A stretch of DNA of 64,000 nt. Origin: Gammaproteobacteria bacterium (GTDB lineage: Bacteria; Pseudomonadota; Gammaproteobacteria; JABABF01). The notes under the pieces are model-generated. The model saw nothing but the letters and a program-made list of their open reading frames with translations, made no database searches and was not told the origin of the DNA. The DNA is taken from contig OZ250153.1 of NCBI GenBank assembly GCA_965237805.1, positions 1,333,816 through 1,397,815 on the forward strand. Direction: 5' to 3'. Below are positions 13,989 to 15,928 of this stretch, piece after piece. Both the position numbers and the translations under genes were made by a program. Within the stretch, counting starts at the first letter, position 1. Each line of letters starts with the position of its first letter.

Positions 13989-14074
13989 ATCCGGTGGTGT
14001 GGTGTCAGCTGTCTGGTCATTTTACGCTGAGGGAGCTAAGGCGTGGGGATGAACCATGCTCGGCGGGCTCGCCG

Positions 14075-14151
14075 CTGGTGGGTCTGGGAAGATTTGAACT
14101 TCCGACCTCACCCTTATCAGGGGTGCGCTCTAACCAGCTGAGCTACAGACC
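14075..14151 (-). tRNA. tRNA-Ile (anticodon GAT), in the 16S downstream spacer.
   Basis: Minus-strand GGGTCTGTAGCTCAGCTGGTTAGAGCGCACCCCTGATAAGGGTGAGGTCGGAAGTTCAAATCTTCCCAGACCCACCA. Cloverleaf folds and matches E. coli tRNA-Ile-GAU. Confidence 0.9.
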
Positions 14152-14396
14152 CGGAAAATATGTCGCGAGCTGCTTGGCGTCGCTCTGCGCGAGCTGGCTG
14201 AGGGCTGGCGACCATGCGAAGCATGATGGTGGGACACGCCGATTATTCGTTTAGTACTGATAGGTGTGGACGCTTGAGCCGAAGGCTTGCACGGCGCAGT
14301 CGTTGCGCTGGCACGGCGGCGGCAAGCCACAGGCGTGCGCTCCGAGGAGCGTCACCGTGTACTGCCGTGCGCCGAGGGCACAAGACCGCATTGCGA

Positions 14397-15928
14397 TTAG
14401 GAGGTAATCCAGCCGCAGGTTCCCCTACGGCTACCTTGTTACGACTTCACCCCAGTCATCAACCACACCGTGGCGACCGCTTTCCCGAAGGTTCAGCTAA
14501 CCGCTTCTGGTGCAACCGACTCCCATGGTGTGACGGGCGGTGTGTACAAGGCCCGGGAACATATTCACCGCGACATGCTGATTCGCGATTACTAGCGATT
14601 CCGACTTCATGCAGTCGAGTTGCAGACTGCAATCCGGACTACGACCGGTGTTCTGGGATTGGCTCCCCCTCGCGGGTTAGCGACCCTCTGTGCCGGCCAT
14701 TGTAGCACGTGTGTAGCCCACCCCGTAAGGGCCATGATGACTTGACGTCGTCCCCGCCTTCCTCCGGCTTGTCACCGGCAGTCTCCCTAAAGTTCCCGGC
14801 ATGATCCGCTGGCAAATAGGGACAAGGGTTGCGCTCGTTACGGGACTTAACCCAACATCTCACGACACGAGCTGACGACAGCCATGCAGCACCTGTCACT
14901 CGGTTCCCGAAGGCACACCACCATCTCTGGTGGTTTCCGAGGATGTCAAGGGGTGGTAAGGTTTTTCGCGTTGCATCGAATTAAACCACATGCTCCACCG
15001 CTTGTGCGGGCCCCCGTCAATTCATTTGAGTTTTAACCTTGCGGTCGTACTCCCCAGGCGGAGAACTTAACGCGTTAGCTACGCTACCAAAGCTGATGCC
15101 CTGACAGCTAGTTCTCATCGTTTACGGCAAGGACTATCCGGGGTATCTAATCCCGTTCGCTACCCTTGCTTTCGCACCTCAGCGTCAGTATTAGGCCAGA
15201 GAGCCGCCTACGCCACTGGTATTCTTCCCGATATCTACGCATTTCACCGCTACACCGGGAATTCTACTCTCCTCTCCTATACTCAAGTTGGGCAGTATCG
15301 GATGCAGTTCCCGAGTTGAGCTCGGGGCTTTCACATCCGACTGACCCAGCCGCCTACGCGCGCTTTACGCCCAGTAATTCCGATTAACGCTTGCACCCTT
15401 CGTATTACCGCGGCTGCTGGCACGAAGTTAGCCGGTGCTTCTTATGCGGGTAACGTCACGGCCAAGAGGCTGTTTGCCCTTGGCTTTTCTTCCCCGCCGA
15501 AAGTGCTTTACGACCCGAAGGCCTTATTCACACACGCGGCATGGCTGCATCAGGCTTGCGCCCATTGTGCAATATTCCTCACTGCTGCCTCCCGTAGGAG
15601 TCTGGGCCGTGTCTCAGTCCCAGTGTGGCTGATCATCCGCTAAGACCAGCTAAGGATCGTCGCCTTGGTAGGCCATTACCCTACCAACAAGCTAATCCTA
15701 CGCGGGCCCATCCGGCAGCGGGAGCCCCGAAGGCGCCCCCTTTCTCCCTTAGGAGATATGCGGTATTAGCCCGAGTTTCCTCGGGTTGTCCCCCTCTGCC
15801 GGGCAGGTTCCCACGTGTTACGCACCCGTCCGCCGCTCTACTCGCACCCGAAGGTGCTTTCGCGCTCGACTTGCATGTGTTAGGCCTGCCGCCAGCGTTC
15901 AATCTGAGCCATGATCAAACTCTTCTTG
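14397..15928 (-). rRNA. rrs: 16S ribosomal RNA (complete, ~1.53 kb).
   Basis: 5' end AAGAGTTTGATCATGGCTCAG (rc of 15905-15926). 3' end GGATTACCTCCTAA (rc of about 14397-14410). Universal 16S blocks are present, e.g. rc of GTATTACCGCGGCTGCTGGCAC. Confidence 0.9.

Follow-up and report, generated by a model that had tools for sequence, protein, structure and literature searches.

The locus considered here raises the question of whether a 16S rRNA gene that is parted from the rest of its operon reflects the chromosome of the organism or an error of assembly. It lies in a stretch of 64,000 nucleotides (64 kb; hereafter the window) from a gammaproteobacterium of the lineage JABABF01 (GenBank assembly GCA_965237805.1, contig OZ250153.1, positions 1,333,816 to 1,397,815), in which the 16S gene (rrs) is followed by tRNA-Ile(GAT) and then by the protein-coding gene erpA. 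A first-pass annotation of this DNA had proposed two explanations, namely unlinked 16S and 23S genes or an rRNA operon (rrn) repeat that was mis-joined during assembly. Comparison with related contigs makes it likely that the rrs locus is truly unlinked and has been conserved as such in evolution, a judgement that includes the scheme of processing and read-through set out below.

RNA genes were called with Rfam and ARAGORN across the whole window. The complete minus-strand 16S gene that had been annotated is recovered as a full-length Rfam match, and the tRNA-Ile(GAT) behind it is found by both programs (coordinates are collected in the table). The order of 16S, spacer and tRNA-Ile, with erpA next on the same strand, also stands, and only the distances need correction, the spacer measuring 244 rather than 246 nt and the gap between tRNA-Ile and the first ATG of erpA 87 rather than 86 nt. 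The absence of tRNA-Ala, 23S and 5S genes, noted before for the next 14 kb, extends to the entire 64 kb, where neither Rfam nor ARAGORN gave a single match to any of them; the remaining RNA genes are tRNA-Gly(CCC), tRNA-Thr(TGT), and one partial tRNA-Thr copy. The nearest 23S gene must thus lie at least 14.4 kb away on the 3' side of the 16S gene and at least 48 kb away on its 5' side. Unlinked rRNA genes have been defined by a distance of more than 1500 bp between 16S and 23S (Brewer et al., bioRxiv 10.1101/705046), and a complete 16S gene with no 23S within 1500 bp is therefore an unlinked 16S by that definition. The locus belongs to this known class, which it resembles further in that the trait is kept within a phylogenetic cluster, and the lineage is new to the class.

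The same junction is found in other assemblies. A separate contig of 20.8 kb (L042) encodes an identical ErpA and matches the window at 99.5% identity for 8412 nt (window 18110..9704), a stretch that takes in the whole block and polA; beyond these 8412 nt the identity drops to 93% and the sequence rearranges, which marks L042 as an independently assembled strain variant. In a second species (L043), with ErpA and PolA each 83% identical to those of the window, a complete 16S (7519-9052), tRNA-Ile (9293-9369), erpA (10001-10372), and polA follow one another in the same order, without the methyltransferase gene that parts these last two in the window. A third species (L001), represented by a GenBank metagenome-assembled genome contig from an unrelated project and carrying an ErpA of 78% identity, opens on the 3'-terminal 42 nt of a 16S gene and continues with a diverged spacer, tRNA-Ile(GAT), and erpA. 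Two contigs of a fourth species (P0122/L047 and P0242/L048, the latter at about 80% nucleotide identity) stop short of the 16S-erpA block, one on each side of it, and are uninformative on the junction, L048 being used for the promoter comparison. Between the window, L001, and L043 the neighbouring DNA is arranged differently, and the block itself is preserved. It is extremely improbable that the tRNA-Ile/erpA junction is a chimera absent from the cell: although rrn operons are classic assembly breakpoints and the contigs of several relatives end in or near 16S (L004, L009, and L001), four contigs that represent three species and come from at least two unrelated assembly projects share the identical junction, natural divergence has altered the spacers but left the 16S and tRNA genes conserved, contig names and sizes ('ctgN_Nx_l' style, 1.73 Mb) suggest long-read assembly, and a mis-join would not be heritable across species with naturally diverged spacers. 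Of the two explanations first offered, the mis-join is thus refuted by the junction shared with L042, L043, and L001, and the unlinked 16S gains the support of a strain variant and two other species.

The 16S gene itself looks like a working copy by its overall conservation (97.5% identity between the window and L043, with 38 substitutions and no indels, in flanking DNA of about 85% identity), and several paired substitutions between the same two sequences also keep helices intact, for example at positions 76/85 (A-U to G-C) and 583-584/641-642. The tRNA-Ile gene differs from the L043 and L001 copies at zero to two positions. The 16S gene of the window ends in GGATTACCTCCTAA (14397..14410) and so retains the anti-Shine-Dalgarno core CCTCC; the 16S of Escherichia coli ends in GGATCACCTCCTTA. 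This unusual 3' end is common to all clade members seen, including L043 (9039-9052) and L001 (29-42). In its unlinked setting, the 16S gene is apparently functional. As a separate observation, obvious Shine-Dalgarno sequences are few ahead of erpA in the window and in the L001 and L043 species.

Upstream of the mature 16S 5' end, at a distance of about 320 nt, is a probable promoter, and the aligned position reads TTGACA-18-TAGAAT in L043 (11 of 12 consensus positions) and TTGACG-18-TATACT in L048, in which the 18-nt spacer sequence is unlike that of the window. The hexamers are thus kept in three species, whereas the DNA around them is poorly conserved. The leader further contains a boxA-like antitermination motif, GCTCTTTGGCAA, which occurs once in the window, where chance would give 0.03 occurrences. 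In E. coli, boxA reads GCTCTTTAACAA, with which the motif agrees at 10 of 12 positions, making it a candidate site. The pattern GCTCTTYRRCAA matches L042 and L043 at the corresponding leader position, and L005 has one match close to the downstream end of its contig, a place in which an rrn leader would be expected.

The leader is also complementary to the spacer on the other side of the gene. The inverted repeat I1 spans the entire 16S gene with arms of 21 nt that are 90% complementary, a length reached in none of 500 shuffles (mean 12.3, maximum 18; ungapped complementarity). This test replaced duplex folding of the whole leader against the whole spacer, which was uninformative, lying only about 1.4 standard deviations below shuffles. 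The leader arm ACTTATAGGTGTGGGCGCTTG is identical in L043 and L048, and the spacer arm CAAGCGTCCACACCTAT(C/G)AGT is kept in L043 and L001 together with the 16S-proximal half of the spacer, while the rest has diverged with indels. Nested within this stem is a shorter one (I16; 11 nt, 91% complementary), which is weak evidence alone, though cofolding of the leader and spacer arm regions yields a single extended helix in which I1 and I16 are correctly nested. Judged by its pairing, the leader and spacer have the architecture of an RNase III pre-16S stem, and cleavage is presumed.

The scheme proposed for the locus joins these elements. A sigma-70-type promoter some 320 nt upstream would drive a leader bearing the boxA-like motif, and the leader would pair with the spacer 3' of 16S to form a double-stranded processing stem, presumably cut by RNase III. 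Cleavage of the stem would release the pre-16S, and tRNA-Ile(GAU) would then be excised from the same transcript. The ancestral operon would have been broken directly after tRNA-Ile, with tRNA-Ala, 23S, and 5S now encoded elsewhere (at least 14 kb or at least 48 kb away), and the antiterminated polymerase would probably read at least partly into erpA, tRNA processing freeing the mRNA.

The origin of the split can be approached through the surroundings of erpA in other genomes. Outside the clade the contexts are ordinary ones: L044-L046 (ErpA 69-72% identical) have the order argC-erpA-anmK with no rRNA within 10 kb, while in Pseudomonadales-like relatives erpA stands upstream of a linked operon and some 5 kb away from it, the operon reading 16S-tRNA-Ile-tRNA-Ala-23S in L017 and L024 and the contigs L004 and L009 stopping inside the 5' part of 16S. 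Since these outgroup contexts are ordinary, the split is taken to be derived and clade-specific. Within the clade, PolA identities are 100, 85, and 83%, against at most 56% to all other Gammaproteobacteria, and the 16S of the window shares only 84-86.5% identity with its L017 and L024 counterparts. On the strength of such gene orders and identities, the split directly after tRNA-Ile is a derived trait of a small, deep-branching, uncultured gammaproteobacterial lineage. Compared with the canonical operons of L017 and L024, the locus has kept tRNA-Ile(GAU) in first place, the tRNA being near-identical, along with a probable promoter, a candidate boxA in the leader, and the predicted stem; it differs in that erpA stands where tRNA-Ala and 23S would follow tRNA-Ile. 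Most simply, the operon would have been split by an inversion or translocation, one breakpoint of which fell between tRNA-Ile and tRNA-Ala. Also considered, and rejected, was an integrative element at tRNA-Ile, there being neither an integrase nor a repeat of the tRNA-Ile 3' end, and erpA and polA being core genes. Elsewhere in the window, at 34306..36812, are smpB (-), tRNA-Gly(CCC) (-), msrA, birA, and coaX (type III pantothenate kinase). Just upstream of (murB-)birA, both E. coli and Pseudomonas carry an rrn operon; none stands beside birA within the window, a hint of further reshuffling of ancestral rrn neighbourhoods in the lineage.

A different explanation grants the locus its reality but not its standing as the only arrangement in the cell. 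The genome could be a mixed one, in which an orphan 16S-tRNA-Ile copy, left by partial duplication or deletion, coexists with a complete linked 16S-Ile-Ala-23S-5S operon elsewhere. The analysis covered 64 kb out of a contig that measures at least 1.73 Mb, together with flanks of at most 10 kb around related genes, and it counts against a wholly unlinked genome that 23S and 5S lie outside the visible 64 kb of that contig. Mixed genomes do exist, for instance in Truepera (Brewer et al., 10.1101/705046), and gene conversion could hold an orphan 16S copy intact. Nevertheless, the arrangement has lasted across at least three species with promoter, boxA-like motif, stem, and compensatory 16S changes intact, and the L001 contig, a short-read one, runs unbranched through erpA, tRNA-Ile, the whole spacer, and 16S, which argues against a second copy of the spacer leading to tRNA-Ala. 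The 1.73-Mb contig, together with the lower mean copy number of unlinked genomes, would point towards a low rRNA copy number. A mixed genome is therefore quite unlikely. Among the relatives, L045 is a circular contig of 2.0 Mb that carries an ErpA of 69% identity.

The identity of the gene that follows tRNA-Ile is clear. The open reading frame (ORF) scores 162.8 bits against the NCBIfam equivalog NF010147 (cutoff 117), the three conserved cysteines of GGGC...CGCG are invariant relative to L001, and the protein is identical (100%) to the database protein P0001 of 122 aa. An exact database look-up of the 125-aa ORF gave no match because the deposited gene call begins at M4, and P0001 was recovered by a homolog search. 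The true start is probably at 13979 (M4), as this agrees with the P0001 gene call and aligns with the start codon in L043, and it would widen the gap to tRNA-Ile to 96 nt. A scan of metagenome contigs with an ErpA alignment yielded no close relatives, the best reaching 54%.

Transcription of erpA together with the rRNA is a plausible further element of the scheme. In none of the three gaps (window, L001, and L043) did consensus scans detect a terminator-like site or, on the erpA strand, a promoter-like one, so that co-transcription of erpA is compatible with the sequence. The gap of the window folds no more stably than shuffles (z = -0.10), has a C/G ratio of 1.64, and is not conserved in sequence in L001, in which just 32 nt separate tRNA-Ile from the first erpA ATG. 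The 16S-tRNA-Ile-erpA block has, moreover, remained intact in three species while both flanks were reshuffled. In E. coli, the thrU-tyrU-glyT-thrT-tufB operon is a tRNA-mRNA co-transcript, and the present locus resembles it in having a stable RNA, a short gap without a recognisable terminator, and a housekeeping gene on the same strand, whose mRNA tRNA processing would release. It differs in that the upstream unit is an rRNA gene with putative antitermination signals and in that its co-transcript is a predicted one. A literature search for precedents of co-transcription of rRNA and protein genes gave nothing usable.

Several observations weigh against read-through. The promoter and terminator scans were simple consensus matches and hence crude; the gap between tRNA-Ile and erpA extends to 631 nt in L043, AT-rich stretches included; a GTAAAAT motif, common to the window and L043, lies about 45-55 nt ahead of the erpA start and could be the weak -10 box of an erpA promoter; and the C-rich, G-poor gaps between tRNA and erpA resemble Rho loading sites. 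All but the first of these would be accommodated if the unlinked locus were real but erpA independent of it, the rrs-tRNA-Ile transcript ending after the tRNA through Rho or processing and erpA being served by a weak promoter of its own, and rRNA-level transcription of a gene for a low-abundance protein seems wasteful besides. On the other side, the GTAAAAT motif has no -35 element, none of the three gaps contains a promoter-like site on the erpA strand, an intrinsic terminator was not found, and in L001 tRNA-Ile and the first ATG are only 32 nt apart. Polymerases modified at boxA resist Rho in E. coli, which likewise speaks against a separate erpA unit. Such a separate unit is a serious possibility, with somewhat less than an even chance. 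Partial read-through from the rRNA unit into erpA is, on the sequences compared, a matter of roughly even odds, and the fuller proposal, that 16S, tRNA-Ile, and erpA form a conserved transcription unit in which the rRNA promoter would drive erpA through a boxA-antiterminated polymerase and tRNA processing would release the mRNA, is tentative and rather doubtful.

The long gap in L043 was inspected in its own right. About 600 extra nt, partly AT-rich, are present at 9385..10034 in this species only; an Rfam E-value scan of the gap gave no match, no remnant of tRNA-Ala or 23S was seen, and its ORFs resemble noise. A gene now decayed, or else a small mobile element, could account for the extra sequence.

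Among bacteria, unlinked rRNA genes occur widely and in phylogenetic clusters, and unlinked genomes have fewer rRNA copies, slower predicted growth, and a trend towards smaller size that is not statistically significant (Brewer et al., 10.1101/705046). The 1.73 Mb of the source contig would fit smaller genomes, with the same caveat that the trend is not significant. The earlier remark that unlinked genes are uncommon in Gammaproteobacteria fits the survey, in which Buchnera is the only gammaproteobacterial unlinked cluster named (Brewer et al., 10.1101/705046). Unlike that cluster, the present one is an uncultured environmental clade, and unlike many unlinked lineages it retains tRNA-Ile with 16S. 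In Buchnera aphidicola, rrs is reportedly separate from rrl-rrf with protein genes flanking it, as Munson, Baumann and Moran are said to have described in 1993. The likeness is that of a gammaproteobacterium with 16S and 23S-5S in separate units beside housekeeping genes, and the difference that of an obligate endosymbiont whose genome measures about 0.6 Mb and whose neighbour genes are other ones; in the comparison with Buchnera, no evidence emerged that the clade of the window is endosymbiotic. Helicobacter pylori also has an unlinked 16S gene apart from 23S-5S, with a flanking stem that RNase III cuts (Iost et al., PMC6582327). Both are stand-alone 16S units with a leader and trailer stem enclosing the 16S, predicted from sequence in the present case, but the locus described here belongs to another phylum, keeps the spacer tRNA, and is directly followed by a protein-coding gene.

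Table. Features of the 16S-tRNA-Ile-erpA locus and its immediate neighbours in the window
Feature	Position	Strand	Basis or remark
16S rRNA, complete	14397..15930	-	Rfam RF00177, 1572 bits, model positions 1-1533 of 1533
16S-to-tRNA-Ile spacer, 244 nt	14153..14396	-	holds 3' stem arms 14256-14276 and 14298-14308
tRNA-Ile(GAT), CCA end encoded	14076..14152	-	ARAGORN; Rfam 74.4 bits
tRNA-Ile-to-erpA gap, 87 nt	13989..14075	-	C-rich, G-poor
erpA, A-type iron-sulfur cluster insertion protein	13611..13988	-	NF010147
Probable rrs promoter TTGACG-18-TATACT	16249..16278	-	promoter scan, 10/12 consensus positions
boxA-like antitermination motif GCTCTTTGGCAA	15972..15983	-	leader, 42-53 nt ahead of 16S
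5' (leader) arm of predicted long-range pre-16S stem, ACTTATAGGTGTGGGCGCTTG	16127..16147	-	inverted repeat I1, partner 14256-14276
Inner leader arm, nested in main stem	16067..16077	-	inverted repeat I16, partner 14298-14308
Orphan ORF, 347 aa, divergent from rrs promoter	16206..17249	+	no Pfam/NCBIfam match
polA	9894..12692	-	NF004397 DNA polymerase I, 1074.9 bits; follows erpA as the next gene on this strand
CmcI/rhamnosyl-O-methyltransferase-like gene	12825..13538	+ (opposite strand)	separates erpA from polA in the window

The genes around the block are partly conserved and partly variable. Homologs of the orphan ORF that diverges from the rrs promoter were sought as a route to relatives with a linked operon at this site; 5.8 billion proteins yielded just three, every one of them from the clade. 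The ORF is syntenic in L043 and L048. Its start is probably the in-frame ATG at 16254, which would abut the rrs -10 box, so that the promoter of the ORF itself would have to sit within the rrs leader. On the other side, the adjacency of erpA and polA is preserved in L042 and L043. Low-GC (47-54%) glycan-modification genes at 17271..20478 and 12825..13538 bracket the rRNA-erpA block. Besides the CmcI/rhamnosyl-O-methyltransferase-like gene, they comprise a double GT2 glycosyltransferase of 772 aa and an orphan of 262 aa; the window, L042, L047, and L048 have them, and L043 does not. The glycosyltransferase island lies upstream of 16S in the window and directly after erpA in L001, and the set looks like an accessory island that is mobile or variable.

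Further from the locus, a 60-nt tRNA-like match (33 bits) at 36862..36921 (-), 84 nt downstream of tRNA-Thr(TGT) at 37006..37078 (-), is an exact duplicate of the approximately 49-nt 3' part of that tRNA and looks like an att-type direct repeat from an integrative element, the island itself being gone or tiny. A giant protein of 1892 aa with Peptidase_M23, CARDB, and InlB-B-repeat domains is encoded at 2616..8294 (-), a region that differs and rearranges between the window and L042, where two genes of 1279 and 1273 aa are called. A type II secretion or type IV pilus-like cluster (T2SSE ATPase and T2SSF platform protein) with several orphan ORFs occupies 22614..28958 (-) and is syntenic with L043 and L048.

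For the Gammaproteobacteria, the locus adds a second kind of lineage with split rRNA operons, apparently no insect endosymbiont, and fixes the breakpoint of the split exactly, directly after tRNA-Ile. Peculiar to it are the retention of tRNA-Ile with 16S and the presence of an essential Fe-S carrier gene in the former place of tRNA-Ala and 23S. In practice, amplicon methods that span the full 16S-ITS-23S operon (ITS, internal transcribed spacer) will miss the clade, and its 16S-bearing contigs are not to be thrown out as chimeras. The rearrangement is otherwise of an ordinary, already understood type, and read-through into erpA is its only potentially novel angle. If true, such read-through would mean that an rRNA transcription unit carries a protein gene along with it, which is unusual, and a conserved unit of this kind would place Fe-S protein maturation under ribosomal (growth-rate or stringent) control.

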